Assembly: GCA_965223415.1 (NCBI GenBank)
Contig: OZ245002.1
Coordinates: 1,730,578 to 1,794,577, forward strand
Reading direction: 5' to 3'
Origin: Myxococcota bacterium
GTDB lineage: Bacteria > Myxococcota_A > UBA9160 > UBA6930
Length of the DNA: 64,000 bases
Within the stretch, counting starts at the first letter, position 1. Each line of letters begins with the position of its first letter. Shown piece by piece: positions 11,538 to 63,746 of this stretch. The position numbers and the translations under genes are program-made. The notes under the pieces were generated by a model, which made no database searches, was not told the origin of the DNA, and saw only the letters and a list, made by a program, of their open reading frames with translations.

Positions 11538-11571
11538 ACGCAGCAGGGGGACGGCGCCTCCGTTGCGTTCA
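11535..11571. terminator. Palindromic junction element (TGAACGCA...TGCGTTCA) between convergent genes; a likely bidirectional terminator
   Basis: tgaacgca gcaggggg acgg cgcct ccgt tgcgttca. The outer 8-bp arms and an inner 4-bp stem are complementary. TGA at 11535-37 is the kinase stop, and comp. 11569-71 is the NtrC-type gene stop. Confidence 0.55.
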
Positions 11572-17435: not shown

Positions 17436-17458
17436 ACGCAACGCCCGGGTTGCGTTCA
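17433..17458. terminator. Palindromic junction element, TGAACGCAAC-gcccgg-GTTGCGTTCA
   Basis: Perfect 10-bp arms. The PBP1A stop is TGA at 17433-35 and the HAD gene stop is at comp. 17456-58, so both stops are the terminal triplets of the hairpin. Confidence 0.55.
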
Positions 17459-18139
17459 GGAGCGTTCCCCCTGCTGCGTCAGGGCGAGGAGGTCGGCGGG
17501 AGTGGAGGCGAGGTGGTGGGCGCCGGCTTCGCGGAGCTCGGCAGGGCCCCCGATGCCCCAGGTAGCGCCGATGGTGAGCAGGCCGTGGGCCTGGCCCGCT
17601 CGGATGTCGAGGTGGCGATCGCCGACCATCGCGGCGGAGGGCGACTCCGGGCCTCCGCCCAGGGCCGCGAGGGTCCGGCCGACCGTGGCCGTCTTGTCCT
17701 CGTGGTGGGTGCCTTCGAGGGGCGCGCCGACGATCGCCTCGAAGTGGCCGGCGAGCCCCAGGCTCTCAAGGATCGGAACCGCGAAGTCCGCCGGCTTCGA
17801 GGTCGCCACGGCCAGCCGATGCCGCGACGCCAGCGTCTCGAGACACGCCGGAATGCCCTCGAAGGCCGGCGTCTCCCGGGGCGCGACCACGGTGTAGCGC
17901 TCCCGGTAGTGGTCGATGGCCGTGGGGATCGACGCCGGATCGGCGTCCCGGGCCGCCAGCAGGGCGGAGAAGACCTGGTGGAGGGAGACCCCGATCCAGC
18001 CGTGCAGGGCGTGCTCGGGCTCCCGCTCGAGGCCCAGCGCTTCCAGTGCGTGGTTGATGCAGAGGCTGATCGGATGCCGGGAATCGACCAGCACGCCGTC
18101 CAGGTCGAAGAGGATCGCCTCGAGGGGGTGCATTGACAT
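17456..18139 (-). CDS. HAD-superfamily hydrolase (phosphoglycolate-phosphatase-like)
   Basis: MSMHPLEAILFDLDGVLVDS (DxDxV motif I), LAVATSKP (motif II), MVGDRHLDIRAG (motif IV). This is the inner start of ORF 17456..18451. Confidence 0.8.
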   Translation of the reverse strand: MSMHPLEAILFDLDGVLVDSRHPISLCINHALEALGLEREPEHALHGWIGVSLHQVFSALLAARDADPASIPTAIDHYRERYTVVAPRETPAFEGIPACLETLASRHRLAVATSKPADFAVPILESLGLAGHFEAIVGAPLEGTHHEDKTATVGRTLAALGGGPESPSAAMVGDRHLDIRAGQAHGLLTIGATWGIGGPAELREAGAHHLASTPADLLALTQQGERS

Positions 18140-25354: not shown

Positions 25355-26235
25355 GTCGAGACGGCTTCGACGACGAGCCGACCCGCGGGCGGGGAATCGG
25401 CGGCTTCATCCGGAGCCTGCTCTCGGGGATCCCGTGGAGCGAGCGGGCCGAGGAGAGCGAGACGCTCCGCTTGGAAACGCCCCCGCTGATGCGCCTGCGG
25501 GTGGACAACGCCAACGGTCGCACCCAGGTGATCGGGGAGGATCGGGGCGACCTCGAGATCGAGGTGACCAAGACGGCCCGCGCCGATTCCGAGGCCGGCG
25601 CGCGGAAGCTGGTGGAGGACATCCGGCTGGTCACGCGAGAGGACGCCCAGGGCGTGCTCGAGATCGAGGTGGACATCCCGGGCCGCTGGAACCGCCAGGG
25701 GCGCGCGGACCTGAAGCTGCGCGTGCCGCGGGAGCTGTGGGTGGCGGTGCAAGCGGCGAACGGCCGTATCTGCCTCGAGGGCCTGCGCGCCAAGGTGCGA
25801 GCGCGCTCCAGCAACGGCCCGGTCCGCGCCAGCGACATGGTGGGCGACATGGACCTCCAGGCCATGAACGCCAAGGTGCAGACCCGCTGCACCTGCGGGC
25901 GGCTCCTGGCACGCTCGAGCAATGGCAAGATCCAGGTCGAGGAGCACAAGGGCACCGTCGACGCCTCGACCACGAACGGCACGGTGACCTGCGAGATCGA
26001 GGAGCTCGGCAAGGAGGGCGTCACCCTCGTGACGAGCAACGGACGCATCTCCCTCGATCTGCCGGAGAACGCGGACGGCGACCTCGACGTGCGGGTCGAC
26101 AACGGCTTGATCCGCACCTCCCGCGATCTCCCCGGCACGAGCCCCGAACGCAGCGGCCGCCTCAAGGCCACCCTCGGCCAGGGCGGCACCCCCATCCGCC
26201 TCCGCGCCAGCAACGGAACCATCACCGTCCGCTAA
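25351..26235 (+). CDS. DUF4097-like beta-strand-repeat protein (putative adhesin fold)
   Basis: It has reiterated SxNGxI strands: SSNGPVRAS, SSNGKIQVE, TTNGTVTCE, TSNGRISLD, VDNGLIRTS, ASNGTITVR. The start overlaps the sirtuin stop (ATGA). Confidence 0.65.
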   Translation: MSRDGFDDEPTRGRGIGGFIRSLLSGIPWSERAEESETLRLETPPLMRLRVDNANGRTQVIGEDRGDLEIEVTKTARADSEAGARKLVEDIRLVTREDAQGVLEIEVDIPGRWNRQGRADLKLRVPRELWVAVQAANGRICLEGLRAKVRARSSNGPVRASDMVGDMDLQAMNAKVQTRCTCGRLLARSSNGKIQVEEHKGTVDASTTNGTVTCEIEELGKEGVTLVTSNGRISLDLPENADGDLDVRVDNGLIRTSRDLPGTSPERSGRLKATLGQGGTPIRLRASNGTITVR

Positions 26236-26238
26236 CCG

Positions 26239-26274
26239 TTGCGTCGGGGCCGGTTCAACCGGCCGCTAACGCAA
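26239..26274. repeat. Imperfect palindromic junction element of the TTGCGT(T/C)(A/G)GGGCCGGTT family
   Basis: ttgcgtcggggccggtt c aaccggccgctaacgcaa. The right arm contains the stop (comp. 26266-68) and the last two codons (L-R) of the phosphoesterase gene. Confidence 0.6.
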
Positions 26275-26754
26275 TACGTGGATCTCGGGCTCGAGGTGGG
26301 TGCCGGTGACGGTCAGGTGGCCGACGGAGCGGGTGCGACCGGGAGCGGGGGGGCCGGCGTAGCCGGGGTTGAAGTGGAGGCGGTCGCCGTGGCGTTCGAC
26401 CAGCGCTTCGTGGGTGTGGCCGTAGACGAGGGCGTGGGGGCGCCAGGTGTCCAGCTCGGCGGCGACGCGAGGATGGATGCGACCGAAGTTGTCGTACCAG
26501 TGGCAGAGGAGGATGCGCGCCGGGCCCAGCTCGACCCGTTGCTCCCACGGGTAGCGGTGGGTGAGCTCCGGATCGCCGTTGCCGACGACGGCGACGACCG
26601 GGGCCAGGGCGCGCAGTGCCTCGAGCAGGGCCTCATCCCCGACGTCGCCCGCGTGGAGGATGACGTCGGAGCCCTCCAGGGCCGCGCACACGTCGGGAGC
26701 GAGCACGCCGTGGGTATCGGCGACGATGCCCACCCGGGGCGAAGGCCCGCTCAT
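26266..26754 (-). CDS. YfcE/MJ0936-type metallophosphoesterase
   Basis: VGIVADTHG, ILHAGDVG, VVGNGD, LLCHW, ALVYGHTHE: the calcineurin-like phosphoesterase metal-binding motifs. There is an ATGA overlap with the upstream gene. Confidence 0.85.
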   Translation of the reverse strand: MSGPSPRVGIVADTHGVLAPDVCAALEGSDVILHAGDVGDEALLEALRALAPVVAVVGNGDPELTHRYPWEQRVELGPARILLCHWYDNFGRIHPRVAAELDTWRPHALVYGHTHEALVERHGDRLHFNPGYAGPPAPGRTRSVGHLTVTGTHLEPEIHVLR

Positions 26755-27794
26755 CGCCCGACGGGTCGTCGCAGGCGCGCGCCCCCGTGCAGGAAGACGA
26801 CGGCAGAGGGCTGGATCTCGCCGACCACGAGCACGCCCACGGCGTCGCCCTCCTGCAGCTCGAGCGGCTCCGGAAAGCCCTCCACCTCGACGCGAGCGCT
26901 GCGCCGCGCCGGATCCGGATGCCAGACAGTGCGCTCGACGGTCACCCGGGGTGCAGGCGGCACGCTCGCGACCCGCTTCGGCGACGGCTTCGGCTTCGCC
27001 TTGGGGGGTGCCGGAGCGGCGGGCTGCGGAGCCGGCGGCGCGGGACGCGCGAGCACCTCGGGCTCGGGCTGCGACTCCGCCACGGGAGGCCGTGTGGCAA
27101 CGCTTGGCGGGGGCGCAGGCCGGGCAAGGGGTTCCGCCTCCGCGACGGGCGGGGGCGCAGGCCGGGCAAGGGGCTCCGCCTCCGCGACGGGCGGGGGCGC
27201 AGGCCGGGCAAGGGGCTCCGCCTCCACGACGGGCGGGGGCGCAGGCCGGGCGAGGGGCTCCGCCTCCGCGGCCGGAGGCGGCCCAGGCCGCGCGAGGGGC
27301 TCCCGCTCGGCGACCGGAGGCGGGGGCAACAGGTCGCTGGCGAGCGCGAGATCGTCGGCGGCCTCGCGCGAGGGCCCGGGCGAAGGAGCCGGTCTGGCCA
27401 GGGGCTCCGACGGCGGCTGGCCGGGAGCCGCTCCGGGCGGCGGCACGACGGGACCGGCCGTGGCCAGCTCCTCTTCCGGCTGGACCGCAGAGGCCGGCGG
27501 CCCCGCCGGCGGCTCGACGGGACCCGCCGCCTCGGCCGGCTCCACCGCTACCTCCGGCTCGCCTCCGGTCGGGGTCCACAGCCAGGCGAGGAGCAGGGTG
27601 AGGGCCACGGCGGCGGCCCCAGCCAGGGCGCCGCGCCACGGCAGGCGGCGCCGGATGCCGGCTGCCGGGACGCGGTCGCCGGGCTCTCGCGGCGGCCCGC
27701 CTTCGCTGGGCGTCCCCGGCTCCGCCGGTGCATCGGAGCGGCCATGTCGCTCGTCCTCTTCGACCTTCTGGAGCGCCTTCAGGATCGTGCTCAC
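26751..27794 (-). CDS. gspB: GspB/ExeB-like protein with a proline-rich tandem-repeat linker
   Basis: The N-terminus MSTILKALQKVEEDER is the GspB signature, followed by one TM segment (GALAGAAAVALTLLLAWLW). The linker has five copies of AEAEPLARPAPPPV. The C-terminus is VERTVWHPDPARRSARVEVEGFPEPLELQEGDAVGVLVVGEIQPSAVVFLHGG, resembling the T2SS-B C-terminal domain. Confidence 0.65.
   Translation of the reverse strand: MSTILKALQKVEEDERHGRSDAPAEPGTPSEGGPPREPGDRVPAAGIRRRLPWRGALAGAAAVALTLLLAWLWTPTGGEPEVAVEPAEAAGPVEPPAGPPASAVQPEEELATAGPVVPPPGAAPGQPPSEPLARPAPSPGPSREAADDLALASDLLPPPPVAEREPLARPGPPPAAEAEPLARPAPPPVVEAEPLARPAPPPVAEAEPLARPAPPPVAEAEPLARPAPPPSVATRPPVAESQPEPEVLARPAPPAPQPAAPAPPKAKPKPSPKRVASVPPAPRVTVERTVWHPDPARRSARVEVEGFPEPLELQEGDAVGVLVVGEIQPSAVVFLHGGARLRRPVGR
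27106..27316 (-). repeat. 42-bp tandem repeat, about 5 units, in-frame within the gspB-like gene
   Basis: The unit is ggcgggggcgcaggccgggcaaggggctccgcctccgcgacg, with a period of 42 nt (for example ggcggggg at 27106 and 27148). It encodes (A/V)EAEPLARPAPPPV. Confidence 0.85.
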
Positions 27795-30511: not shown

Positions 30512-30552
30512 GAACGCAAGCCCGGGGACGTTCCGTCCCCGGGCTTGCGTTC
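30512..30552. terminator. Perfect 19-bp-stem hairpin filling the convergent junction
   Basis: gaacgcaagcccggggacg ttc cgtccccgggcttgcgttc. The flanking stops are at 30509-11 (TGA) and comp. 30551-53 (TGA). It contains the GGGGACGTTCC core shared with the 57.6-kb and 63.7-kb palindromes. Confidence 0.7.
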
Positions 30553-36335: not shown

Positions 36336-36718
36336 GCCTGGAATCGAAACGCATCGTCGTCGATGGCGTCGGCCGCCTGCCCGTCTTCTCCCATGCCGCC
36401 ACCGCCGGCGACCTGATCTTCGTGTCGGGCACCCTCGGCACCGAGCCGGGAGGCGTCTCGCTCGTACCGGGCGGCATCGGGCCGGAGACGAAGCAGACCC
36501 TCGAGAACATCCGCACCATCCTGGAAGGGGCCGGCGCGAGCCTGGCCGACGTGATCAAGGTGAGCGTCTACGTCACCGACATGGCCGACTTCCGCGCGAT
36601 GAACGAAGCCTACGCCGGGTTCTTCCCCGCAGAGCCGCCGGCGCGGATCACCCTGCAGGTGGCGGGGCTCGCCCTGGGCGCGGCGGTGGAGATCGAGTGC
36701 GTGGCGGTGCGGCGCTAG
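36332..36718 (+). CDS. RidA/YjgF family enamine/imine deaminase
   Basis: PVFSHAATAGDLIFVSGTLG...TKQTLENIRTILEGAGASLADVIKVSVYVTDMADFRAMNEAY...PARITLQVAGLALGAAVEIE. The GTG start at 36332 overlaps the upstream stop, with GAAGGAGG 9 nt upstream. Confidence 0.8.
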   Translation: MSLESKRIVVDGVGRLPVFSHAATAGDLIFVSGTLGTEPGGVSLVPGGIGPETKQTLENIRTILEGAGASLADVIKVSVYVTDMADFRAMNEAYAGFFPAEPPARITLQVAGLALGAAVEIECVAVRR

Positions 36719-38701: not shown

Positions 38702-39427
38702 GTGAGCGAGGGCGCGGGCGAGGACGTCCGCAAGCGCTTCTTTCGGCTGCGCTGGGAGGCGAGCCAGCAGCCGGTGCGGGGCGTGTGGGCCATGCGCCGG
38801 CGGCTCGCGGACGCGATGCGCCGCGTGATCGAGCGCCTGCTCACGAGTGACGCCCCCGAGGCCGAGCTCGGGGCCGCGGCGGAGCGGCTGGAGGAGTATG
38901 CGGAGCGCCTGGCGGGCCATCCCCGCCGCGAGCGTTACCTGGGCTTCGCTGAGACCGCCGTCGCCGACCCGGACGCGGAGATCACGCCGCCCGAAGGCGG
39001 CGGTCACTTTGATTTCAGCCCGCTGATCGGCCGCTCGAACCCGCTGGCGCCGCCCATCGAGATGTCGTCGGACGAGGCCGGCACGGTCCATGGGGTGGCC
39101 GTCTTCGGCACCGCCTACGAGGGCCCGCCGGGCTGCGTCCACGGCGGCTACATCGCGGCCGCCTTCGACGAGGTGCTGGGCTACGCCGAGACCTTCTCCG
39201 GCCAGCCCGGCATGACCGGCACCCTCACCACCCGCTACCGCACCCCGACCCCCCTCCACACCGAGCTCCGCTTCACCGCGAAGCTCGACCGCGTCGAAGG
39301 CCGCAAGATCTTCTGCAGCGGCACCCTCCACGCCGGCGACCGCCTCTGCGCCGAAGCCAACGCCATCTTCGTCACCAGCCGCCCCGGCACCTACACCCAG
39401 CTCCTCGAACAAAGGAAGTTGCGTTAG
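38702..39427 (+). CDS. PaaI/hotdog-fold thioesterase with a long N-terminal extension (paralog 2)
   Basis: GTG start. YEGPPGCVHGGYIAAAFDEVLGYAE...MTGTLTTRYRTPTP...GRKIFCSGTLHAGDRLCAEANAIFV is colinear with the 35694 protein. Confidence 0.75.
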   Translation: MSEGAGEDVRKRFFRLRWEASQQPVRGVWAMRRRLADAMRRVIERLLTSDAPEAELGAAAERLEEYAERLAGHPRRERYLGFAETAVADPDAEITPPEGGGHFDFSPLIGRSNPLAPPIEMSSDEAGTVHGVAVFGTAYEGPPGCVHGGYIAAAFDEVLGYAETFSGQPGMTGTLTTRYRTPTPLHTELRFTAKLDRVEGRKIFCSGTLHAGDRLCAEANAIFVTSRPGTYTQLLEQRKLR

Positions 39428-39484
39428 GGGCCGGTTCTGTTCGTTGCATTGCGTGTTGCATTAGGGGCCGGGTCCGTTTGTTGC
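39418..39484. repeat. Two direct copies of the GTTGC(G/A)TTAGGGGCCGG(T/G)TC-type half-element in a convergent junction
   Basis: Copy 1 is gttgcgttaggggccggttctgttcgttgc (39418-39447). Copy 2 is gttgcattaggggccgggtccgtttgttgc (39455-39484). Copy 1 encodes the last two codons and the stop (L-R-TAG) of the thioesterase. Confidence 0.7.
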
Positions 39485-39485
39485 G

Positions 39486-40976
39486 TTACCGGAGCTCGCG
39501 CTTGAGGATCTTGCCGGTGGGGCCCTTCGGGAGGGTGTCGATGATCTCGACGATGCGCGGGTACTTGTAGGCGGCGAGGTTCTGCTTGCAGTAGGCGACG
39601 AGCTCCTCGGGGGTCGTCTGCTGCTCCTTGCCCAGGGCGACGACCGCCTTCACCTCCTCACCGTGGCTCTCGTGGGGGACGCCGATCACGGCGGCCTCGA
39701 CGACGGCCGGATGGGCGTAGAGCACCTCCTCGACCTCGCGCGGATAGACGTTGAAGCCGCCTCGCAGGATCATGTCCTTCACCCGGTCGACGATGCGGTA
39801 GCTACCGCCGGGATCGCGGATGCCGATGTCGCCGCTGTGGAACCAGCCGCTGCGCATCGTCTCGGCCGTGGCCTCGGGGCGGTTCCAGTAGCCCTTCATG
39901 ATGTTGTGGCCGCGGATGCAGATCTCGCCGCGCTCCCCGTCCGGCAGGGGCTGGTCCTTGTCGTCGAGGATGGCCATCTCGACGCCCCACACCGGGTAGC
40001 CGATCGAGCCGGGCGTGCGCGGCTTGTCCGGCTGGTTGAAGCTCGCCACGGGCGAGGTCTCCGAGAGCCCGTAGCCCTCGAGGATCTCCACGCCGAATTT
40101 CGCCTCGAAGGCCTTCATCACTTCCACCGGCATGGGCGCGCCGCCGGCCATGCAGTAGCGAAGCGACGAGAGATCGGGCTGGCGCGCCCCCTCGTGGTGG
40201 AGGAGCGCGAAGTACATCGTCGGCACACCGGCGAAGAGCGTGACCTTGTCGCGCTCCATGATCTCCATCGCCTCCTCGGGCGTGAAGCGGGGGAGCAGCG
40301 TAAAGGTGCCGCCGGTCGCGATGGTCGCGTTCTGGATGCAGGTCTGGCCGAAGGAGTGAAAGAGCGGCAGCGTCGCCAGCGCCACGTCGTCCTTGCCGAG
40401 GGGCAGCAGCTTCGGCACCACCACCGCGCAGTTCACGAACAGGTTCGCGTGGCTGAGCTCGGCGCCCTTCGGCTTGCCGGTCGTGCCCGACGTGTAAAGG
40501 ATGACCGCCGTGTCGTCGGGGCTCGTCTCGTGGAACGCCGGGAGCGGCGCCACCGCCGCCATCGCCGGCAGGTCGTCGTCCGCCTCGCCGTCGACCCACG
40601 CTACGGGCACGCCGGCGCCGTTGGCGCCGGTCGCCGCCGGCTCGCCGAACAGCGGATGGGCGATCAAGAGCTGCGCCTCGGAGTCCTCGATGTGGTAGGT
40701 CACCTCGGGCGCCGAGAGCAGGACGTTCAGGGGCACCACCGCGCAGCCGGCGTAGAGGATCCCGTAGTAGGCGATCGTGAACTCGGGGACGTTCGGGATC
40801 ATCACCGCCACCTGGGAGCCGGGGGCGATGCCCCGTTCGCGCAGGCCGGTGGCGACGCCGCGGGCCGCCCGGTCGAGCTCGGCGTAGCTCAGGCTCCGCT
40901 CGCCGAGGCGGATGGCGGGATGTTCCGGGCGGTCCTGGGCGGCCGCCATCAGGATGGATCCGAGATTCAGGCTCAT
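39486..40976 (-). CDS. AMP-dependent acyl-CoA synthetase (long/medium-chain fatty-acid--CoA ligase type)
   Basis: ILYTSGTTGKPKGAEL (AMP motif I), EGYGLSETSP, WFHSGDIG, GGFNVYPREVE, PKGPTGKILKREL. Confidence 0.85.
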   Translation of the reverse strand: MSLNLGSILMAAAQDRPEHPAIRLGERSLSYAELDRAARGVATGLRERGIAPGSQVAVMIPNVPEFTIAYYGILYAGCAVVPLNVLLSAPEVTYHIEDSEAQLLIAHPLFGEPAATGANGAGVPVAWVDGEADDDLPAMAAVAPLPAFHETSPDDTAVILYTSGTTGKPKGAELSHANLFVNCAVVVPKLLPLGKDDVALATLPLFHSFGQTCIQNATIATGGTFTLLPRFTPEEAMEIMERDKVTLFAGVPTMYFALLHHEGARQPDLSSLRYCMAGGAPMPVEVMKAFEAKFGVEILEGYGLSETSPVASFNQPDKPRTPGSIGYPVWGVEMAILDDKDQPLPDGERGEICIRGHNIMKGYWNRPEATAETMRSGWFHSGDIGIRDPGGSYRIVDRVKDMILRGGFNVYPREVEEVLYAHPAVVEAAVIGVPHESHGEEVKAVVALGKEQQTTPEELVAYCKQNLAAYKYPRIVEIIDTLPKGPTGKILKRELR

Positions 40977-41032: not shown

Positions 41033-41989
41033 GTGGACGTGGTCGTATTCGGTGCCGGTGCGGTGGGTCTGGGCCTGGCCAGCGCCCTGATCGAAGCGGG
41101 GGCGACGGTGACGATCGTCGCCCGTCCGTCCGTCGCCGAGGCCCTCGCGAGCCGCGGCCTGCTCCGGAGCGGGCTCTTCGGGAGCACCCGGCACGCCCCG
41201 GCGTCGTTCCGGATCGCGACGGAGGCCGAGGAGCTCTCGCGAGCCCCGGACTTCGTGCTCGTGGCCACCAAGTCCTTCGACAGCGCCGCGGCGGCCGAGC
41301 GCCTGGCCGGTGCAGACACGGTGGGACCGGACACGTGCATCGTCCTGTGCCAGAACGGCTGGGGCAATGCCGGGCACTTCACCGCCCGGTTCCGCGAGCC
41401 GCAGGTGTGGAACGCGCGCGTCATCACGGGGTTCCGCAAGCCGGAGCCCCACCACGTCGAGATCACCGTGCACGCCGAGCCGGTGCACGTCGGCAGCCTG
41501 TTCGGCGAGCCTGCAAGGCGCGTCGCGCCGCTGTGTGCAGGCATCGCTCGCGGAGGCCTGCCCTGCGAGGCGACCGACGCGATCGCGGAGGACCTGTGGG
41601 CGAAGCTGCTCTACAACGGCCTGCTCAACCCGCTCGGCGCGATCTTCGACGTGCCCTACGGCGCGCTCGGCGAGAGCGAGGCCTCCCGCGGCCTCCTCAC
41701 CGAGCTCGCCCACGAGATCTTCGGCGTGATGCGGGCGGCGGGCTTCGCGACCCACTGGCCGGACGCAGACACCTACCTCTCCCATTTCTACTCCGTCCTG
41801 CTGCCGCCGACCGCTGCTCACGAGTCGTCCACGCTCCAGGACCTGCGAGCCGGCAAGCGCACCGAGATCGATGCGCTCACCGGCGCCGTGGTCCGGCTGG
41901 GCGAGGAGCACGGGGCGCCGGTTCCCATGAACCGCGCGCTCCTCGCCATGGTGCGCTTCATCGAGGATCAGCGCCGGCTCCGTCGTTAG
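41033..41989 (+). CDS. panE: 2-dehydropantoate 2-reductase (ApbA/PanE family)
   Basis: GTG start. VVVFGAGAVGLGLASAL, VLVATKSFD, QNGWGN, KLLYNGLLNPLGA, SSTLQDLRAGKRTEID. The 3' end overlaps the convergent pspA-like gene by 32 nt. Confidence 0.7.
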   Translation: MDVVVFGAGAVGLGLASALIEAGATVTIVARPSVAEALASRGLLRSGLFGSTRHAPASFRIATEAEELSRAPDFVLVATKSFDSAAAAERLAGADTVGPDTCIVLCQNGWGNAGHFTARFREPQVWNARVITGFRKPEPHHVEITVHAEPVHVGSLFGEPARRVAPLCAGIARGGLPCEATDAIAEDLWAKLLYNGLLNPLGAIFDVPYGALGESEASRGLLTELAHEIFGVMRAAGFATHWPDADTYLSHFYSVLLPPTAAHESSTLQDLRAGKRTEIDALTGAVVRLGEEHGAPVPMNRALLAMVRFIEDQRRLRR

Positions 41990-44065: not shown

Positions 44066-44959
44066 ATGGGAGCTTCCACGGCCGGGGACGAGCTCGCGAT
44101 CTGGCGCGAAGAGCTCCAGCTCCCGGAACGGTCGCTCTCCCGGCTGCGCCCGCCGTCGCCGATGGCCGACGACGTGATGAAGCTGCGCATCCGCGACGAG
44201 CGCGGGCACAGCAGCGGCGTCGCCCTGTGCTCGTCGCCGGGCTGGCCGGACATGGTGGCCCGCGGCGTGGAGCGTGCCCGGGCGGCCCGCGGCGCCCTGG
44301 GCGACGAGCTCGGCGCCGTCGTGCTCGAGCCGGTGCGGGAGGGCCGCCTCGACGGGCGCTCCTATGCCGTGCTGCCCTACCACGAGCCCCTGCCCGGCGG
44401 GCGTCTGGCCTGGGCGTTCCAACGACCGCGCTTCCGGACCGCGGTGGCCGATTGGCTGGCCGAGGCGACGGCTCGCACGGCCCGGCTGCCGGAGGGTGCC
44501 GAGCTCGAGGCCGGGTTCCGGGCGCCGCTCCGGGCCCTGTCGGAGCTCGCCGGGGTCTCCGAACGGGTGCGCGCCGCCGCCGGCGAGGCGTTCGCCCGCC
44601 TGGAGGGAGGCTGGTCCCCGCGCCACGTGCTGATGCACGGGGACCTGTGGCCGGGCAACGTGCTTCGCGCCGACAACCGCTTCGGCTTCGTGCTGATCGA
44701 CTGGGCGGGCAGCCGCACCGACGGCCACGGCGTGTTCGATCTCCTGCGCTGGGCTGAGGCCACGCGCCTGGGCGCGGCTCCCCTGCGTGCGCGGCTCGAG
44801 GTGCACTGCAGCCAGCTCGACTGCGATGTCGCCGACGCCCGCTCGACGCTGCTCGGCGCCCTCGCCCGGATCGCGAGCAGCCTGGGGGAGTTCCCGCTCG
44901 ACCAGTTCGCGGCGATGGCGGAGCGCTGCCTCGACGGGCTGGCGCGGGCCGGCGCCTAG
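44066..44959 (+). CDS. Aminoglycoside-phosphotransferase/choline-kinase-like (APH family) kinase
   Basis: Catalytic loop: RHVLMHGDLWPGNVL. FVLIDWAG is the DxxG-type Mg-binding region. The start is uncertain (ATG at 44066 or 44162). Confidence 0.65.
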   Translation: MGASTAGDELAIWREELQLPERSLSRLRPPSPMADDVMKLRIRDERGHSSGVALCSSPGWPDMVARGVERARAARGALGDELGAVVLEPVREGRLDGRSYAVLPYHEPLPGGRLAWAFQRPRFRTAVADWLAEATARTARLPEGAELEAGFRAPLRALSELAGVSERVRAAAGEAFARLEGGWSPRHVLMHGDLWPGNVLRADNRFGFVLIDWAGSRTDGHGVFDLLRWAEATRLGAAPLRARLEVHCSQLDCDVADARSTLLGALARIASSLGEFPLDQFAAMAERCLDGLARAGA

Positions 44960-45127
44960 GAGCCTGACCCGAGACCGGGTGCGCTGGGCCTCGAGGCGCC
45001 GCGCCCAGTCGGCCCGCCTGGGCGCGCGACCGAGGCGTAGCGGTGTCTACGGCGATGGCAGCGCAACGCAGTCGGCGCGGATGCATCGGCGTCCAGACCG
45101 TGCGCCCGGTCTCGGGTCAGGCTCCTA
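44957..45127. repeat. 171-bp element bounded by 23-bp perfect terminal inverted repeats (MITE-like or a structured RNA)
   Basis: taggagcctgacccgagaccggg (44957-44979) is the exact reverse complement of 45105-45127. The 125-bp core has internal stems (ctgggc/gcccag, gtag/ctac). CGCC flanks both ends. The left TIR begins with the kinase stop codon TAG. Confidence 0.55.
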
Positions 45128-48373: not shown

Positions 48374-50020
48374 TTGAACGAGCAGCTCTTCCTGGCGACG
48401 GGCGTCGTGTTCGTCGTGTTGGTGACCGTGGCCATGCTCCGTGTGGAAGCGCGGAGGGGCGGCGCAGCGTGGGCTGCCTCCTGGATCTGCCTCTACCTCT
48501 CGGGCATGGCTGCGCTCTTCGCCGAGCGGTGGCCGGCCTTGGGCCCGCTCTACGCGGTGCTCGGTACCTGCTTCGCCGCTCTGCTCTGGATCGGCGCCCG
48601 GTACTTCGCGGGCAAGGGCCTGCCCGGGTGGTTCCTGCCGGTGGTGGGCGGCGTCGTCCTCGTGCGTGCGGCGGCGCATCCCTTCCTCCCGGAGGCCGGC
48701 GTCCAGGTCGTCGGGTCGAGCCTGGTGACCCTGGGCGCACTGTGGGCGGCGTGGGAGGTCGGGAAGGCCTCGCTCACACCGGAAGGCAGCGCGGGCGATT
48801 GCGTGCTCGCCACGAGCTTCACGCTGCTGGCTGCGACGAGCTGGGTCTACGCCTGGTGGAAGGTGACCGGTACCACCGCGAACGGCTTCTACCTCTGGCT
48901 CGTGGCGGGCATCCTGGTATCGGGCCTCCAGACCGGTGCGCTCATGGCGCGGGTCTCCCGCTCCGTCGAGCGCGGGCGCGGTGCGCTGGCGGCGCTCTTC
49001 GACTCGGTACCGATCGGCCTCGTGCTCTCGGGGGTCGACGGCGCGGTCAAGGTGACGAACCGGGTCATGGCGGAGATGGTCGGCGGCGAGCCCGCCGACG
49101 CCTGGCCCAGGCGCCCCGTGGCCGACCTCCTCGCGCGCCTCGATCCCGGCCGTCCGTCGGCTCCGGCGAGCCTGGCAGACCCCTGGGCGGGGGTGCGGAA
49201 CGAAGAGCTCCGCCCCTCGGACCAACGCGTGATCGAGGCCCAGGGCCGTCCCGTCGAGGCCGAGGACGGCGAGATCGTGGGGCGCCTGATCCTGGCTCGC
49301 GACGTGACCCACGAGCGGCGGATGCAGGAGCAGCTGCAACGCTCCGGGCGGCTCGAGACCCTCGGACGCCTGGCCGGCGGCATCGCCCACGACTTCAACA
49401 ACAAGCTCACCACGGTCCTCGGCAACGCGGCGTTGGTTCGCTCGAGCCTGCCGCCCGGCCACCCCCAGCACGCCGCGCTGGCGGATCTCGAGAGCGCGGC
49501 CATCGCCTGCGCCGATCTGACCAACGACCTGCTCGACTTCTCGAAGCGGGGCCCGCGGGCGCTGCGGCCGGTCGCCCTCGCTCCGCTGCTCGAGCAGCTC
49601 GCCGGCGAGTTCGCGAGCCAGCTGGGGGACGACGTGAAGCTCGAGATACAGATCGCACCGGACCTGGGCCTGCTGCGCGCGGATCCGAAGCAGCTCGAGC
49701 GCGTGCTCACGAACCTGATGCTGAACGCCCGCGACGCGGTGGGGCAGAGTGGGCGCGTCGCCCTCTCCGCCGCACGCGCCCGGCGAACGCGCCGGGAGGT
49801 GATCGAGATCGCCATCTCGGACGACGGGACGGGCATGGACGACGAGACCCGACAGCGCATCTTCGACCCCTTCTTCTCCACCAAGGGGAGCGGGACCGTC
49901 GCGACCGGCCTGGGCCTCGCGATCGTCCACGGGATCGTCGCCTCCCACGACGGAGAGATCCACGTGGAGAGCCTCCCGGGCCGCGGCACCCGGGTGGTGA
50001 CGACCTGGCCGACGGCCTAG
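48374..50020 (+). CDS. Membrane sensor histidine kinase (polytopic N-terminus, PAS-like, HisKA, HATPase)
   Basis: TTG start. There are about 6 hydrophobic helices. PAS-like: LFDSVPIGLVLSGVDGAVKVTNRVMAEMVG. H-box: LAGGIAHDFNNKLTTVLG. ATPase: LMLNARDA...ISDDGTGMD...FFSTKGSGTVATGLGLAIV. Confidence 0.85.
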   Translation: MNEQLFLATGVVFVVLVTVAMLRVEARRGGAAWAASWICLYLSGMAALFAERWPALGPLYAVLGTCFAALLWIGARYFAGKGLPGWFLPVVGGVVLVRAAAHPFLPEAGVQVVGSSLVTLGALWAAWEVGKASLTPEGSAGDCVLATSFTLLAATSWVYAWWKVTGTTANGFYLWLVAGILVSGLQTGALMARVSRSVERGRGALAALFDSVPIGLVLSGVDGAVKVTNRVMAEMVGGEPADAWPRRPVADLLARLDPGRPSAPASLADPWAGVRNEELRPSDQRVIEAQGRPVEAEDGEIVGRLILARDVTHERRMQEQLQRSGRLETLGRLAGGIAHDFNNKLTTVLGNAALVRSSLPPGHPQHAALADLESAAIACADLTNDLLDFSKRGPRALRPVALAPLLEQLAGEFASQLGDDVKLEIQIAPDLGLLRADPKQLERVLTNLMLNARDAVGQSGRVALSAARARRTRREVIEIAISDDGTGMDDETRQRIFDPFFSTKGSGTVATGLGLAIVHGIVASHDGEIHVESLPGRGTRVVTTWPTA

Positions 50021-52125: not shown

Positions 52126-53220
52126 ATGGCACTGCGCTGCGGCATCGTGGGCCTCCCGAACGTCGGCAAGAGCACGCTCTTCAACGCGCTCACCGAGGCC
52201 GGGATCGCGGCCGAGAACTACCCGTTCTGCACCATCGAGCCGAACTCGGGCATCGTGCCCGTGCCGGACGAGCGGCTGGGGGGCCTCGACGCCATCGTGC
52301 ACGCCCAGCAAGTCGTTCCCGCGACGGTCGAGTTCACGGACATCGCCGGGCTGGTGCGCGGCGCCTCCCGGGGCGAAGGCCTCGGCAACCAGTTCCTGGC
52401 GAACATTCGCGAGACCGCGGCCGTTGTCCACGTGGTGCGCTGTTTCGAGGACGACGACGTCACCCACGTCGAGGGCAGCGTGGACCCGCTACGGGACGTG
52501 GAGACCATCGAGACCGAGCTCGGCCTGGCGGACCTCGAGACCGTGGAGAAGCGGCTCGACCGGGCGCAGCGCGCGGCCAAGGCGGGGCGCAAGGAGGACC
52601 GGGAGGAGGCGGCCTTCTTCGAGGCGCTGCTCGCGCACCTCTCGGAAGGGAGCCCGGCCAGGAGCTTCGAGGTTCCCGCCGAACAGGCCCAGACCTTTCG
52701 CGAGAGCTTCCTGCTGACCGCGAAGCCGGTCCTGTACGTCGCGAATGTGGACGAGGACGGGCTCACGGAGGGCAACGAGGCGGTGCGAGCCCTGGAGGAA
52801 TACGCTGCGAAGGTGGGCGCGGGCGTCGTGCGCATCTGCGCGAAGGTCGAGGCGGAGCTGGCCGAGCTCGACGCGGAGGAGAAGCGGGAGTTCCTCGACG
52901 ATCTGGGCCTCGCGGAGCCGGGCCTCCACCGCCTGGCCCGAGCCGCCTACGACCTGCTCGAGCTGATCACCTACCTGACGGCGGGGGAGAAGGAGGTGCG
53001 CGCCTGGACCGTGCGCCGGGGCACCCACGCGCCCCAGGCGGCCGGCGAGATCCACACGGACTTCGAGCGCACCTTCATCCGGGCCGAGGTGATCCCCTAC
53101 GATGACTACGTCGCGTGCGGGGGAGAGAACGAAGCCAAGGCCCGCGGCAAGATGCGGGCGGAAGGGAAGGATTACGTGGTGCAGGACGGTGACGTCATCC
53201 TCTTCCGGGTGGGCGCCTGA
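52126..53220 (+). CDS. ychF: Redox-regulated ATPase YchF
   Basis: CGIVGLPNVGKSTLFNALT, NYPFCTIEPN, FTDIAGLVRGAS, and the C-terminal TGS region RAWTVRRGTHAPQAAGEIHTDFERTFIRAEV. Confidence 0.9.
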   Translation: MALRCGIVGLPNVGKSTLFNALTEAGIAAENYPFCTIEPNSGIVPVPDERLGGLDAIVHAQQVVPATVEFTDIAGLVRGASRGEGLGNQFLANIRETAAVVHVVRCFEDDDVTHVEGSVDPLRDVETIETELGLADLETVEKRLDRAQRAAKAGRKEDREEAAFFEALLAHLSEGSPARSFEVPAEQAQTFRESFLLTAKPVLYVANVDEDGLTEGNEAVRALEEYAAKVGAGVVRICAKVEAELAELDAEEKREFLDDLGLAEPGLHRLARAAYDLLELITYLTAGEKEVRAWTVRRGTHAPQAAGEIHTDFERTFIRAEVIPYDDYVACGGENEAKARGKMRAEGKDYVVQDGDVILFRVGA

Positions 53221-53245: not shown

Positions 53246-53728
53246 ATGCCCACCGACTTCCTCACGCCCGAGGAGGTGCTCGCCCGATACACCGCGGGGC
53301 CCAAGACGGGCGTCTTCACCGACGGCTCCTGCGAAGGCAACCCGGGCCCCGGCGGCTGGGGCTTCGTCTGGGTCGAGGACGACGAGATCCGTGCCGAGCG
53401 CTCGGGCCACGATCCCCAGACGACGAACAACCGCATGGAGCTCACCGCGCTGATCGAGGCCTACAAGGCGCTGTCCGAGGACGCCGAGATCACCGTCCAT
53501 TCCGACAGCCAGCTCTGCGTCAAGACCGTCAACGAGTGGGCCGCCGGCTGGGAGCGCCGGGGCTGGAAGCGCAAGACCGGCCCCATCGCGAACCTCGAGC
53601 TCGTGCAGCAGCTCTACGCCCTGGCGAACGCCCACCCCGGAGTGACCCTCCAGTGGATCAAGGCCCACGACGGCAGCCGCTGGAACGAGTACGCCGACGC
53701 CCTCGCCTCCAGCTTCGAAGACCGCTGA
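53246..53728 (+). CDS. rnhA: Ribonuclease HI
   Basis: VFTDGSCEGNPGPGGWGFV, TNNRMELTALIEA, VHSDSQ, WIKAHDGSRWNEYADALA: the DEDD catalytic pattern. Confidence 0.85.
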   Translation: MPTDFLTPEEVLARYTAGPKTGVFTDGSCEGNPGPGGWGFVWVEDDEIRAERSGHDPQTTNNRMELTALIEAYKALSEDAEITVHSDSQLCVKTVNEWAAGWERRGWKRKTGPIANLELVQQLYALANAHPGVTLQWIKAHDGSRWNEYADALASSFEDR

Positions 53729-53740
53729 CGTTGCGTCGGG

Positions 53741-53815
53741 TGTTGCGTTAGGGGCCGGTTCCGTTTGTTGCGTTGCGAAGCAACGCAACAAACGGAACCG
53801 GCCCCTAACGCAACA
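53741..53815. repeat. 75-bp perfect palindrome (36-nt arms, 3-nt loop) of the TTGCGTTAGGGGCCGGTT family
   Basis: tgttgcgttaggggccggttccgtttgttgcgttgc gaa gcaacgcaacaaacggaaccggcccctaacgcaaca, with every arm position checked as complementary. The right arm contains the last codons and stop (V-L-R-TAG, comp. 53805-) of the CoA-transferase. An extra partial copy, gttgcgtcggg, lies at 53730-53740. Confidence 0.85.
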
Positions 53816-54998
53816 CGCCGTTCTGGCGGAGGGCGGCGAGCGCCTCGTCGGCGAGGCCCAGCTCTTCGCGGAGGACTTCGTCGCTGTGCTCGCCGAGGAG
53901 GGGGGCGCGGGTCATCTCGACCTCGCTGGCCGAGAGGCGGGGCGCGAAGCCGAGCAGCCGGACGCGGCCGCGCTCCGGGTGCTCCACCTCCTGGACGAAG
54001 CCGCGCTCCAGCAGATGGGGGTCGTGGTGGAGATCGCGGGTATCGAGAATCGCCGAGCAGGGAACGCCCGCCTTGCCGAGGACCTCCATCACCTCGTACT
54101 TCGTGCGCTCGCGGATCCAGGCGGTCACCTCTTCGCGCAGGGCCTCGCCGTTCTCCATCCGCGCCGCCTCGGTCTCGAAGCGCGGATCCACCAGCATGTC
54201 CAGGCGCTCCATCGCCATGCACAGGTGGTCCCAGTGCCGATTCGTCACGGTGATCAGGTAGGCGTAGTCGTTCGCGCCGAAGGGCTTGCAGGGATAGAGC
54301 CCGGTCGGCGAAGAGCCCATCGTGTTGCCGATGCGCGGCACCACCTGCTCGCCGAAGTCCGACGCGAAGGAAATGCGCGTGCGCATGAAGTAGGTCATCG
54401 CCTCCTGCATCGAGATCTCGATCTGCTGCCCCTCGCCGGTGCGCATGCGCTGAATCACGGCGGCGAGGATCGCCACGGCGAGCTGCACGCCGGTGCCCGA
54501 ATCGGCGGTCGTCGGCCCGGGGAGCATCGGCGGCCCGTCGAACTCCCCGGTCACCGAGAAGGTCCCCGCGGCGGCCTGGGCGATCATGTCGTAGCTCTTG
54601 TACTCCGCGTAGGGCCCGGAGCCGCCGAAGCCCTTGATCTGAGCGTAGATGATCCCGGGATGCGCGGCCTTGAGGGTCTCGTACTCGAGGCCCATCCGCT
54701 CCACGACACCGGGCCCGTAGTTCTCGACGAAGACGTCGAAGCGCGGCGCCAGCTTCAGCAGGATGTCTCGCCCTTCGGCCGTGGTGAGGTCGAGGGCGAG
54801 GCTGCGCTTGTTCGCGTTCCAGTTGCAGAAGTAGGGCGAGTAGTCGCCGCCCACCACGAGCGTGCGCCCCGGATCGCCGTGCTTGGGCGCCTCCACCTTC
54901 ACGACGTCGGCGCCGAGCCAGGCCAGGGCCTGGGTGCAGGAGGTGCCCGCCTCGTACTGGGTCATATCGAGAATGCGCAGACCGTCGAGAGCCGCCAT
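53805..54998 (-). CDS. CaiB/BaiF family (class III) CoA-transferase
   Basis: MAALDGLRILDMTQYEAGTSCTQALAWLGADVVKVE...FVENYGPGVVERMGL...TTADSGTG...LGEHSDEVL. A GGAGG RBS is present. This is the inner ATG of ORF 53805..55694. Confidence 0.85.
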   Translation of the reverse strand: MAALDGLRILDMTQYEAGTSCTQALAWLGADVVKVEAPKHGDPGRTLVVGGDYSPYFCNWNANKRSLALDLTTAEGRDILLKLAPRFDVFVENYGPGVVERMGLEYETLKAAHPGIIYAQIKGFGGSGPYAEYKSYDMIAQAAAGTFSVTGEFDGPPMLPGPTTADSGTGVQLAVAILAAVIQRMRTGEGQQIEISMQEAMTYFMRTRISFASDFGEQVVPRIGNTMGSSPTGLYPCKPFGANDYAYLITVTNRHWDHLCMAMERLDMLVDPRFETEAARMENGEALREEVTAWIRERTKYEVMEVLGKAGVPCSAILDTRDLHHDPHLLERGFVQEVEHPERGRVRLLGFAPRLSASEVEMTRAPLLGEHSDEVLREELGLADEALAALRQNGVLR

Positions 54999-57106: not shown

Positions 57107-57600
57107 ACGTCCACTTCCAGGCGCTGGCCCGCTACAACCGCGGCGCCAACGTGCGGCTCTACCGGGCCTGCGGCAGCTTGGCCGACGAGGAACGCCGTCG
57201 CGATCGCGGCGCCTTCTTCGGCTCGATCCACGCCACCCTCAACCACATCCTGGTCGGCGACCGCATCTGGATGGCCCGCTTCGAGGGCGAGGCGGTCCCT
57301 TCGACCGGGCTGGACGCGATCCTCTACGACGACTGGGGCGATCTGCGCGCGACCCGCCGCGTCGAAGACGATCGCATCCTCCACTTCACGGAGACCCTCG
57401 AGCCGGCCTTCCTCGAGAGCGAGATCGAGTACGTCAACAACGAAGGCCGCACCTTCCGCGACCCCGTCGCCGTGCTCCTTTCCCACTTCTTCAACCACCA
57501 GACCCATCACCGCGGCCAGATCCACTGCCTCCTCACCCAGGCCGGTGTCGAGGCGCCGGTGCTCGACATGCACCGCGTCCTCATCCCCCATCCACCGTAG
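57103..57600 (+). CDS. DinB family protein
   Basis: The GTG start overlaps the upstream stop. ARYNRGANVRLY...IHATLNHILVGDRIWMARF...LLSHFFNHQTHHRGQIHCLLTQAG shows the His triad of the DinB/YfiT fold. Confidence 0.75.
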   Translation: MNVHFQALARYNRGANVRLYRACGSLADEERRRDRGAFFGSIHATLNHILVGDRIWMARFEGEAVPSTGLDAILYDDWGDLRATRRVEDDRILHFTETLEPAFLESEIEYVNNEGRTFRDPVAVLLSHFFNHQTHHRGQIHCLLTQAGVEAPVLDMHRVLIPHPP

Positions 57601-57678
57601 AAGTGCAAGAGTGGGGACGTTCCTTGCAACTTGCGCAATTGCGCAAGTTGCAAGGAACGTCCCCACTCTTGCACTTCT
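57599..57678. repeat. 80-bp perfect, loop-less palindrome in a convergent junction
   Basis: agaagtgcaagagtggggacgttccttgcaacttgcgcaa|ttgcgcaagttgcaaggaacgtccccactcttgcacttct. All 40 pairs were checked. Each arm can also fold on itself (tgcaag...cttgca), displaying GGGGACGTTC. It starts inside the DinB stop codon (TAG at 57598-600). Confidence 0.9.
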
Positions 57679-63018: not shown

Positions 63019-63678
63019 ATGGTGGAGAGAGGTTCGACGGACGCGGTCCACGATCGCGTCCAGGCGCACTTCGGTGAGGTGATCGACGAGGCCCGGCGCA
63101 TGGAACGCCGGATCGCGGGCTGGGTCAGCCGGGAAGAGCTGGTTTCGTGGGGGGGCATGGGCCTGCTGGAGGCGGCCCAGCGCTTTCGGCCGGACTTCGG
63201 TGTTCCCTTCACCCAGTACGCCCGATACCGGGTTCGCGGCGCCATGCTCGATGGCCTCCGCGAGGTGAACGGCGTGCCCCAGGGGTTGTGGCGGGCGCGC
63301 TCCCGGGAGGATGAGGCGGCCTCCGCCACCCTGGACGCCCACGCCGAACGGGTGGCCGGTGCGCGCACCAGCGGCTGGCTGGCGGAGACCGGCTCCGACG
63401 AGTGGGGCCAGCCCATCGCGGTGGACCGGGAGCCGGATCCGGAGGCCATGGCCAGCGACCGGCAGCTCGCCGGGGTGGTCGAGGAGGCGCTGGACGCCCT
63501 TCCCGAGGCCGAGGCCACGGTCATCCGCCGCCACGTCCTGGCGGACGAGCCCCTGGCGGAGGTCGCCCTGGAGCTCGGCGTGAGCAACCCGCGAGCCCAC
63601 CAGATCCGCGCCCGCGCCCTCCGCCGCCTGGCCCCGCGCCTGCGCGGCCTCGCCCACCCCGAGCGCGCCGCCGGGTGA
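63019..63678 (+). CDS. Sigma-70 family factor, group-3/FliA-like
   Basis: Region 2: EELVSWGGMGLLEAAQRFRPDFGVPFTQYARYRVRGAMLDGLRE. Region 4: EATVIRRHVLADEPLAEVALELGVSNPRAHQIRARALRRL. Confidence 0.75.
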   Translation: MVERGSTDAVHDRVQAHFGEVIDEARRMERRIAGWVSREELVSWGGMGLLEAAQRFRPDFGVPFTQYARYRVRGAMLDGLREVNGVPQGLWRARSREDEAASATLDAHAERVAGARTSGWLAETGSDEWGQPIAVDREPDPEAMASDRQLAGVVEEALDALPEAEATVIRRHVLADEPLAEVALELGVSNPRAHQIRARALRRLAPRLRGLAHPERAAG

Positions 63679-63746
63679 GACAAGGGGACGTTCCTTTCTG
63701 TCTCACGGTCGCCGTGAGACAGAAAGGAACGTCCCCTTGTCTCACC
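63674..63746. repeat. 73-bp perfect palindrome (35-nt arms, 3-nt loop) in a convergent junction
   Basis: ggtgagacaaggggacgttcctttctgtctcacgg tcg ccgtgagacagaaaggaacgtccccttgtctcacc, with all 35 pairs checked. The sigma-factor stop TGA (63676-78) and the first base of the ligase stop (comp. 63746-48) lie in the arms. Each arm self-folds (tgagaca...tgtctca) around GGGGACGTTCC. Confidence 0.9.

Follow-up and report, generated by a model that had tools for sequence, protein, structure and literature searches.

A perfect palindrome of 77 bp, at positions 53740-53816 of a 64-kb stretch of DNA from a high-GC Myxococcota-like genome (the whole of the DNA analysed, hereafter the window), lies between two converging genes and contains the end of one of them. 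It belongs to a family of short repeats, the copies of which in the window all lie between convergent genes and touch or overlap their stop codons. We consider it likely that the palindrome is a REPIN-like inverted dimer of a mosaic, REP-like family that occupies convergent gaps, that the family has a transposase-borne origin and that the two genes share the resulting 3' hairpin. The element is a new subfamily member of an already known type (REP-like or TIR repeats) and has barely altered the three proteins that its copies overlap; for the window itself its significance is minor, as a repeat-family hairpin at a gene junction, beside protein tails that are essentially native. In a wider setting, an exact 11-nt core carried by other palindromes of the window, GGGGACGTTCC, recurs in gene-end palindromes of very different bacteria and is tied to one clade of Y1 (HUH) transposases, which makes it a concrete candidate for the sequence recognized by a transposase subclass that is large but still little understood. 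Such repeats at stop codons will confront gene callers and terminator predictors in many metagenome-assembled genomes (MAGs).

The palindrome and its relatives in the window

The palindrome is flanked by an RNase H-like gene on the + strand (stop 53726-53728) and a family III CoA-transferase gene on the - strand (stop 53805-53807). Its 37-nt arms are 100% complementary; the initial annotation had seen almost all of it, as a perfect palindrome of 75 bp with 36-nt arms and a GAA loop. The left arm was delimited by an inverted-repeat scan and by alignment to units from other genomes. The parts of the locus are as follows.

53730-53739, + strand: extra copy of repeat X' (GTTGCGTCGG), an allele without a stop codon, beginning 1 nt past the TGA of the RNase H-like gene
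53740-53776, + strand: left arm, GTG-TTGCGTTA-GGGGCCGGTTCC-GTTTG-TTGCGTT-GC, that is, X', core variant, X'
53777-53779, strand not given: loop GAA, with apex GCGAAGC
53780-53816, + strand: right arm, exact reverse complement of the left arm
53805-54998, - strand: family III CoA-transferase gene (match to PF02515), with its 3' end within the right arm

The outermost 12 nt of the right arm (53805-53816) double as the terminal V, L and R codons and the stop of the CoA-transferase gene. As a repeat, the palindrome consists of two inverted copies of a unit of ~35 nt, which runs from TTGCGTTA (X') through a G4...CC core (GGGGCCGGTTCC) and GTTTG to TTGCGTT. The TTGCGTT copies within this unit are direct, not inverted, and a single unit is not an imperfect palindrome. 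The core (GGGGCCGG...) is without the GGGGAC head found in other members, and matches exactly neither GGGGWSAS nor the 11-mer GGGGACGTTCC.

Short repeats of TTGCGT type are a component of the unit. Three TTGCGT/ACGCAA hexamers per arm had been counted initially; two are exact, the third being TTGCGA at the apex, and the extra copy reported beside the palindrome is present at 53731. Across the window, which has a GC content of 71.4%, the TTGCGT hexamer is mildly enriched (21 copies versus 14.6 expected) and its copies cluster at gene junctions.

Transcribed into RNA, the palindrome is predicted to fold with -89.0 kcal/mol on the + strand and -87.2 kcal/mol on the - strand, versus about -42 kcal/mol on average for shuffled sequences (z-scores of -13.6 and -13.3, respectively; 0 of 200 shuffles folded equally well). 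No U-tract or T-run follows the hairpin on either strand, and a simple terminator scan of 53700-53830 was empty. Rfam covariance models gave no gathering-level match within the 64-kb window.

The 20-mer GTTGCGTTAGGGGCCGGTTC, with up to 3 mismatches allowed, has five matches at three loci (26256, 39418, 39455, 53742 and 53795), for which shuffled sequences lead one to expect 0. The two related copies that had been pointed out earlier are thereby recovered, at 26238-26275 and 39418-39489, and further palindromes in the window share parts of the unit.

11535-11571, strand not given: imperfect palindrome, TGAACGCA...GGGGGACGG...TGCGTTCA, from stop codon to stop codon of convergent genes
17433-17480, strand not given: small palindrome, TGAACGCAAC-GCCCGG-GTTGCGTTCA, both ends of which are TGA stops of convergent genes
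26238-26275, + strand: imperfect and truncated inverted dimer, GTTGCGTC-GGGGCCGGTT / AACCGGCCGC-TAACGCAAT, with -30.6 kcal/mol and z = -3.7 on the + strand
30512-30552, strand not given: perfect palindrome with 19-nt arms, GAACGCAAG-CCC-GGGGACG-TTC-CGTCCCC-GGG-CTTGCGTTC
39418-39489, + strand: direct tandem dimer of a ~36-nt unit, filling exactly the gap between a thioesterase gene and an acyl-CoA synthetase gene
57599-57678, strand not given: perfect palindrome of 80 bp, with 40-nt arms, no loop and the canonical core GGGGACGTTCC in each arm
63674-63746, strand not given: perfect palindrome with 35-nt arms and the canonical core, each arm being X-core-X' (GTGAGACA...TGTCTCAC)

The truncated dimer at 26238-26275 sits between a + strand gene (TAA 26233-26235) and a metallophosphoesterase gene on the - strand (stop 26266-26268). 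In the tandem copy, the TAG of the thioesterase gene (39425-39427) falls within the first X' and the TAA of the acyl-CoA synthetase gene (- strand, 39486-39488) within the last. The X'-N4-X' layout of the 53730 region recurs there, at 39443-39462, and the spacing of 12 and 25 nt between the repeats of 53730-53767 is reproduced at 39443-39480. This copy is not palindromic and does not fold (z = +0.5). The same unit is thus seen as an inverted dimer, a direct tandem and a truncated dimer, which identifies it as a repeat unit in several configurations and not as a hairpin that evolved once in place. Moreover, given the direct repeats within the unit and the tandem that does not fold, hairpin function cannot account for all of the copies.

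The exact 11-mer GGGGACGTTCC is common to the three other perfect palindromes, at 57599, 63674 and 30512. The arms of the first two are X-core-X' hairpins; at 30512-30552, repeat X is joined to the canonical core, between convergent genes. The convergent genes on either side of the palindrome at 57599-57678 end at 57600 and 57684, and the palindrome at 63674-63746 reaches from one stop codon to the other of a convergent pair. The short ACGCAA/TTGCGT repeat is also present in the junction palindromes at 11535, 17433 and 30512, and after the palindrome at 17433-17480 a core-like sequence, GGAGCGTTCCCCC, falls within the last coding stretch of the - strand gene. Throughout the window, each convergent gene pair either overlaps by CTAG or is split by a palindrome that touches or contains the stop codons, in keeping with the earlier observation that the element overlaps coding sequence and with the earlier suggestion that it may favour gene ends. 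No target-site duplication or flanking direct repeat was found at any copy, and no conserved GTAG or GTGG at the unit ends, the GTAG at 57597 being stop codon context only. The window holds, separately, a true MITE-like insert with TA flanks, at 44957-45127.

Ends of the overlapped genes

Three genes end in the same nine nucleotides, TTG CGT TAG, as the initial annotation had stated: the CoA-transferase gene (...GVLR-stop; - strand, stop 53805-53807), the metallophosphoesterase gene (...HVLR-stop; - strand, stop 26266-26268) and the thioesterase gene (...RKLR-stop; + strand, 39419-39427). From this it had been proposed that the element remodelled the C termini of three unrelated proteins. The ancestry of the tails can be read from homologs; for the CoA-transferase and the thioesterase, the nearest relatives have 80-82% identity and come from Myxococcota or 'Deltaproteobacteria' MAGs; a Streptomyces-type terminator, which the 71% GC had suggested, was set aside on that ground.

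The CoA-transferase has the same length, 397 amino acids, as 68 of its 120 best homologs, among which the tails follow the pattern G-[VIL]-[VIL]-[RG] (27 end in LG, 23 in VR and 5 in LR). Two orthologs that end in LR are free of the element, and their genes terminate in GTA CTG CGC TAG and GCG CTG CGC TAG. The window gene ends in GTG TTG CGT TAG, so that its Leu and Arg codons differ from those of both orthologs by synonymous transitions only; relative to the first ortholog the changes are CTG to TTG, CGC to CGT and, in the Val codon, GTA to GTG, all of them synonymous. Element-free orthologs of this protein therefore already end in LR-stop, two synonymous changes away, and the proposed remodelling fails for it. 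Judged from these comparisons, the tail is ancestral; the arm appears to have fused with the end of the gene and to have left the protein as it was. At the loci of the nearest CoA-transferase relatives (81-82% identity), neither a palindrome nor synteny was found.

The proposal likewise does not hold for the metallophosphoesterase, in which the Leu of the LR tail is at least 90% conserved and homologs end 0-20 residues beyond it. Only for the thioesterase does part of it survive. The tail of this protein is a variable basic region that follows a conserved ...L-x-x-x-R; the window protein has 241 amino acids and ends in QRKLR-stop, and its nearest homolog has 246 amino acids, 5 more, and ends in ERNARQP-stop. 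Alone among the three, the thioesterase may have undergone a mild C-terminal remodelling or slight shortening. All six gene ends that adjoin the 53740 subfamily are Arg-stop.

The overlap between the element and the last codons would follow from the close resemblance of its outer repeat, GTG TTG CGT TAG, to a common native end, GTN CTG CGC TAG. Insertion beside a native ...CTG CGC TAG could have produced two near-identical tandem 12-mers, the collapse of which would have left a single sequence serving as both arm and gene end.

The core and its transposase neighbours in other genomes

The exact 20-mer GTTGCGTTAGGGGCCGGTTC has 0 matches in 185,579 species-representative GTDB genomes. Relatives of the unit occur at three loci of delta-proteobacterial MAGs (L066, L069 and L112), where they read TTGCGTTAA-GGACCGTCCCC-N4-TTGCGTTAG, have the same repeat-to-repeat spacing as the 53740 unit and align with it in 14 invariant and 7 near-invariant columns. 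They form the outer layer of composite palindromes of ~150 nt, the inner part of which carries the exact GGGGACGTTCC core, and the short repeat provides the TAA stops of flanking genes. As the unit is present in other genomes, it must be older than this one and cannot have arisen from the tail of the CoA-transferase. The initial annotation had named restriction of the element to the three loci as an outcome that would count against its finding; no such restriction applies.

A scan of GTDB genomes with the pattern GGGGACGTTCC-N15-45-GGAACGTCCCC returned at least 115 loci from many phyla, the loci listed including Coriobacteriia, Clostridia, Myxococcota and 'delta' MAGs, Omnitrophota, Spirochaetales, Gammaproteobacteria, Actinomycetota and others. 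We do not take this raw count as proof that the core is conserved, as a background of ~54 matches is expected for any 11-mer doublet, and for this reason we used an internally controlled metagenome scan instead. With the pattern GGGGASSTTCC...GGAASSTCCCC, the true core was matched 96 times, as opposed to 12, 4 and 2 times for three matched palindromic controls and 7 times for combinations that are not palindromic; palindromes with the true core are thus around 16 times commoner than those with matched control cores. The core is conserved across phyla, in host DNA that ranges from 23.5 to 75.1% GC. Viral contigs gave 0 matches to the core doublet and hence were of no use as a control.

Copies within one genome end sharply at GGGG...CCCC, lie in unrelated flanking sequence and show no target duplication. 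Side repeats are specific to each lineage (for example, GCCGGCACT, GTTGACTT, CTTGCTTT, CGTCAC and TTGCGTTC), and the sequence 5' of the core recurs behind it in direct (15%) or inverted (14%) orientation, versus 3% in controls. Among the elements of other genomes the outer arms are conserved, the apices vary yet remain self-complementary, and the two arms co-vary through Watson-Crick double changes. At the at least 115 loci the elements adjoin the stops of ORFs that are mostly convergent, as judged by crude ORF calling. No gene consistently adjoins them. Those between pairs of elements have housekeeping roles and are unrelated to one another; among the neighbours, just the AMP-binding synthetase family, which is abundant anyway, recurs. 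In eight foreign loci, Rfam models found nothing beyond chance similarities that stayed below threshold, namely hairpin-like matches to precursors of miRNAs and to a hairpin family of plastid 3'UTRs; a literature search for the core string returned just an unrelated primer and oligonucleotides.

In other organisms, the canonical core is associated with Y1 transposase genes. Two loci that had been selected by the core alone hold element-flanked Y1_Tnp genes on the - strand, at positions 53-817 of L195 and at approximately 3300-3903 of L072; the former was detected by tblastn with a RAYT sequence and the latter with a profile built from L195 homologs. Both ORFs score above the cut-off of Pfam PF01797 (44.6 and 27.9 bits, respectively). 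The best NCBIfam match of the transposases is the model for REP-associated tyrosine transposases, at 34-78 bits, which is below the equivalog cut-off of 80. The L195 ORF encodes 254 amino acids with the motifs NHIH and YIYQNP and a weak HTH_7 match; that of L072 has the motifs HTHLH and YIELNS. The L195 gene is flanked by family copies with the core GGGGACGTACC, and a copy with the exact core lies 1.6 kb away. In L072, the exact core encodes the 3' end of the gene, and a palindrome with the exact core lies ~100 nt upstream.

The association was also seen from the side of the protein. All six distinct loci chosen by protein homology alone (from Sporomusa sphaeroides, a Clostridia MAG, Schinkia and three metagenome contigs) have inverted repeats containing GGGGAC or GTCCC near the transposase gene. 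In at least three of the six (Sporomusa L241, L243 and L244 of the Clostridia MAG) an upstream X-GGGGAC..CC-X' is mirrored downstream; in the rest the repeats are degenerate or one-sided. The flanks of the fetched transposase genes carry the variants GGGGACAG, GGGGACGG and GGGGACGT.

No Y1 transposase gene was found within the 64-kb window by tblastn and profile search. The link of the 53740 palindrome to the transposase-associated class is indirect and would run through its architecture and its alignment to units of the L069 type. We infer that a cognate transposase is encoded in this genome and that the variant core is mobilized in the same way, or formerly was.

Origin of the palindrome and comparison with known elements

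In the account that we consider likely, the X'-core-X' unit (X', TTGCGTTA; core, GGGGCCGGTTCC) belongs to a mosaic family of short palindromic elements in this high-GC Myxococcota-like genome. Because elements with the canonical core flank single-copy, IS200-like Y1 (HUH) genes of the TIRYT type elsewhere, its most likely origin would be spread as single-stranded hairpin DNA by a Y1 transposase of TIRYT type, or RAYT subclass 2.1, which may have been followed by local duplication, truncation and arm-to-arm correction. Both converging transcripts would then receive one very stable 3' hairpin, which probably terminates transcription in both directions, impedes 3' exonucleases or does both.

Much of the layout could also be explained by an ordinary bidirectional terminator that evolved in place and was lengthened by template-switch (quasi-palindrome) correction, with no mobile ancestry and with shared constraints as the source of resemblance among loci. 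Every instance lies between convergent genes and abuts stop codons; the arms are perfect, yet copies at different loci differ at several positions; the apices vary but stay self-complementary; and the outer 12 nt of the right arm match the gene's own ancestral end with synonymous changes. We nevertheless consider this origin unlikely, as a 20-mer at three loci together with an exact 11-mer at three others within 64 kb is impossible by convergence. The unit is, moreover, found in other genomes, the units of one copy stand in direct tandem and cannot fold, and elements elsewhere have sharp, identical boundaries and unrelated flanks and adjoin Y1 transposase genes. The tandem, which retains the short repeats although it does not fold, would be accommodated if a DNA- or RNA-binding protein of defined sequence specificity recognized an array of TTGCGT(T) repeats placed 12 and 25 nt apart, the hairpin being incidental. 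The three to four repeats per locus at equal spacing (53730-53767 and 39443-39480) and the repetition of the 5' flank after the core, much more frequent than in controls, are what such an array would predict; but the short repeat is lineage-specific and the core universal, which fits recognition of a transposase or guide type better than a host regulator, and no candidate binding protein is encoded nearby. We regard a binding array as quite improbable.

An active remodelling of C termini, in which insertion gave three unrelated proteins new Leu-Arg-stop tails with functional consequences, draws on the identity of the nine nucleotides in three genes, in codons that are rare for a genome of 71% GC, and on a thioesterase that lacks 5 residues relative to its nearest homolog and differs from it in the tail. 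It is very improbable in view of the CoA-transferase, in which both tail and length are ancestral and element-free orthologs end in CTG CGC TAG, of the conserved (at least 90%) Leu of the phosphoesterase and of the position of the thioesterase tail in a non-conserved region. Hardest of all to credit is that a DDE transposase moved the element as a conventional MITE, bounded by terminal inverted repeats and a target-site duplication. The element is nearly all inverted repeat, and the window does contain the true MITE-like insert at 44957-45127; however, no copy has a target-site duplication, units also occur singly, in tandem and truncated, and the genes associated with them elsewhere are Y1/HUH and not DDE.

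Several familiar structures resemble the palindrome in part. Bidirectional intrinsic terminators likewise place a stable hairpin symmetrically between two gene ends, identical on both strands; here, by contrast, there is no U- or A-tract, the 37-bp stem is far beyond need and the sequence is common to loci and genomes. The CGTC REPs are also small REP-like repeats, but have stems of 8-9 bp, loops of 4-5 nt, an unpaired CGTC tag and a CCA tail, and are known mostly from Alphaproteobacteria with no associated transposase (PMC3733652); this identity was rejected on architecture, and the CGTC in the reverse core GGAACGTCCCC is coincidental. Other candidates were dropped: a SECIS element (the stops are TAA and TAG, and the loop is unlike), operators of LexA, PurR or LacI type (the spacing is wrong), mimicry of the tRNA-Glu acceptor stem (a shared 7-mer only, in the wrong polarity) and, for poor fit, the 16S rRNA 3' helix 45 hairpin, integron attC sites and Neisseria-type uptake-sequence terminators.

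The REP/REPIN-RAYT systems and BIMEs of Proteobacteria, which are GTAG-tagged, also resemble it. They too consist of short palindromic extragenic repeats, usually inverted dimers built from mosaic modules and enriched between convergent and tandem genes, and ORFs beside them often take their TAG stop from a REP terminus (PMC3733652). Mobilization by a single-copy Y1 transposase has been proposed for them, and in Escherichia coli REPs act as terminators and mRNA stabilizers and are enriched between convergent genes (bioRxiv 10.64898/2026.03.23.713779). The window family has the general features of such repeats: several dispersed copies (5 units at 3 loci in 64 kb, and the canonical core at 3 more), inverted pairing at 53740-53816 and, imperfectly, at 26238-26275 (39418-39489 being a direct dimer), and an extragenic position between convergent genes for all copies. 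It differs in having no GTAG or GTGG tag, in that the conserved part is an 11-nt quasi-palindromic core with lineage-specific side repeats, and in that the unit of the 53740 subfamily is not itself a hairpin.

A further likeness is to TIRtrons, or TIRYTs (subclass 2.1 TnpAY1; Bertels group 1). TIRYTs are Y1 transposases flanked by TIRs that share GGGGWSAS, and some TIRs have been amplified into families of repeats arranged as dimers (Di Nocera, De Gregorio & Rocco 2013, PMC3733652). Subclass 2.1 TnpAY1 proteins, of ~238 amino acids, with NH[VYF]H and YIELNP motifs and a C-terminal HTH, are present in 14.9% of strains, and no REP-like sequences were found for them (Quentin et al. 2018, PMC6006769). 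The proteins of the foreign loci match the type (Y1/HUH genes of ~250 amino acids, with NH(I/V)H, Y---N(P/S) and a C-terminal HTH). The inverted repeats that flank TIRYT genes start with GGGG[AT][CG], and the canonical elements of the window (GGGGACGTTCC) share the GGGGAC head; elements with an identical core flank such genes in L072 and L195; and some TIRYT repeats form dispersed families of dimers. We tentatively propose, as a possibility that falls somewhat short of probable, that subclass 2.1 Y1 transposases have in the palindromes with the GGGGACGTTCC core the abundant REPIN-like partners that they had seemed to lack. In that case, a single recognition core of 11 nt would have remained unchanged across phyla and from 23 to 75% GC, lineage-specific side repeats of 6-10 nt would co-evolve with it, perhaps as guide or specificity determinants, and core elements would routinely build the stop-to-stop junctions of converging genes. 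The differences from published TIRYTs lie in sequence and in distribution. The published consensus is GGGGWSAS, whereas the core here is GGGGACGT(TCC) and that of the studied palindrome GGGGCCGG; GGGGACGT and GGGGCCGG each agree with the consensus at 6 of 8 positions. In published accounts the families are moderately abundant and confined to few genomes or, for subclass 2.1, no REP-like sequence was found, whereas the elements described here form perfect palindromes of REPIN type at the ends of genes from many phyla, and the breadth and exactness of their core somewhat exceed the descriptions in PMC3733652 and PMC6006769.

Gene ends beside units of the palindrome's subfamily

All six genes in the window that adjoin units of the subfamily to which the palindrome belongs, the ~35-nt repeats, end in an arginine codon followed directly by a stop. 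The codons are CGT TAG at three of these ends and CGG TAA, CGC TGA and CGC TAA at one each; three of the six ends do not overlap a unit.

Arg-stop gene ends adjoining subfamily units (window)
26233-26235, 26266-26271, 39422-39427, 39486-39491, 53723-53728, 53805-53810

The minus-strand ORF at 26751-27794, which lies upstream of the metallophosphoesterase domain, encodes a 13-residue repeat (AEAEPLARPAPPPV) in approximately five tandem copies.

Core elements in other genomes

In a delta-proteobacterial metagenome-assembled genome (MAG), the repeat core GGGGGAACGTCCCC itself encodes the final residues, RGNVPS, of a Y1 transposase (locus L072, 3297-3330). Across many Collinsella species (loci within L006-L120), a palindrome with the same core lies 22-24 nt downstream of an orthologous gene for a PTS sorbose-family IIB component (for example, L006 7191-7244), and the palindrome stems show Watson-Crick compensated changes (CACTT/AAGTG, CACTC/GAGTG, CACCT/AGGTG and CAGTT/AACTG). 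A single Omnitrophota MAG carries three copies of the element in which both 28-nt arms are identical and the 3-4-nt loops all differ (GTTA, TGAC and GTA).

Element copies in the Omnitrophota MAG
L014 551-610
L018 2388-2447
L035 5737-5797

Convergent gene pairs and other elements in the window

In four convergent pairs the genes share exactly 4 nt, CTAG, which provides a TAG stop on either strand; in a fifth the overlap is 32 nt long.

Overlaps of convergent gene pairs (window)
CTAG, 4 nt: 8306-8309, 19362-19365, 36715-36718, 50017-50020
32 nt: 41958-41989

Two further features of the window carry inverted sequences.

Other inverted-repeat features (window)
44957-45127: MITE-like insert of ~170 nt between convergent genes
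6774-6791 and 6946-6963: 18-nt inverted arms, 94% complementary (GGGGCCGCTTCGCTTCTT / AAGGAGCGAAGCGGCCCC)

The terminal inverted repeats of the MITE-like insert are perfect over 21 nt (GGAGCCTGACCCGAGACCGGG) and a TA lies on each flank, the left TA and the first G of the repeat together forming the TAG stop of a plus-strand gene. Rfam contained no match for this insert. The 18-nt arms are separated by 154 nt within a 350-nt intergenic region directly after a gene that ends at 6769, and may be part of a larger structured element.

CoA-transferase neighbourhood and palindrome apex

On a metagenome contig (L250), the next gene after the orthologous CoA-transferase encodes a YchF GTPase C-terminal domain (1291-1550). 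A YchF-like gene also lies two genes away from the CoA-transferase in the window (52126-53220), in the opposite arrangement; its presence near this gene in both may reflect residual synteny. At its apex (window 53773-53783) the palindrome reads GCGAAGC, the classic DNA mini-hairpin sequence known for its unusual stability.
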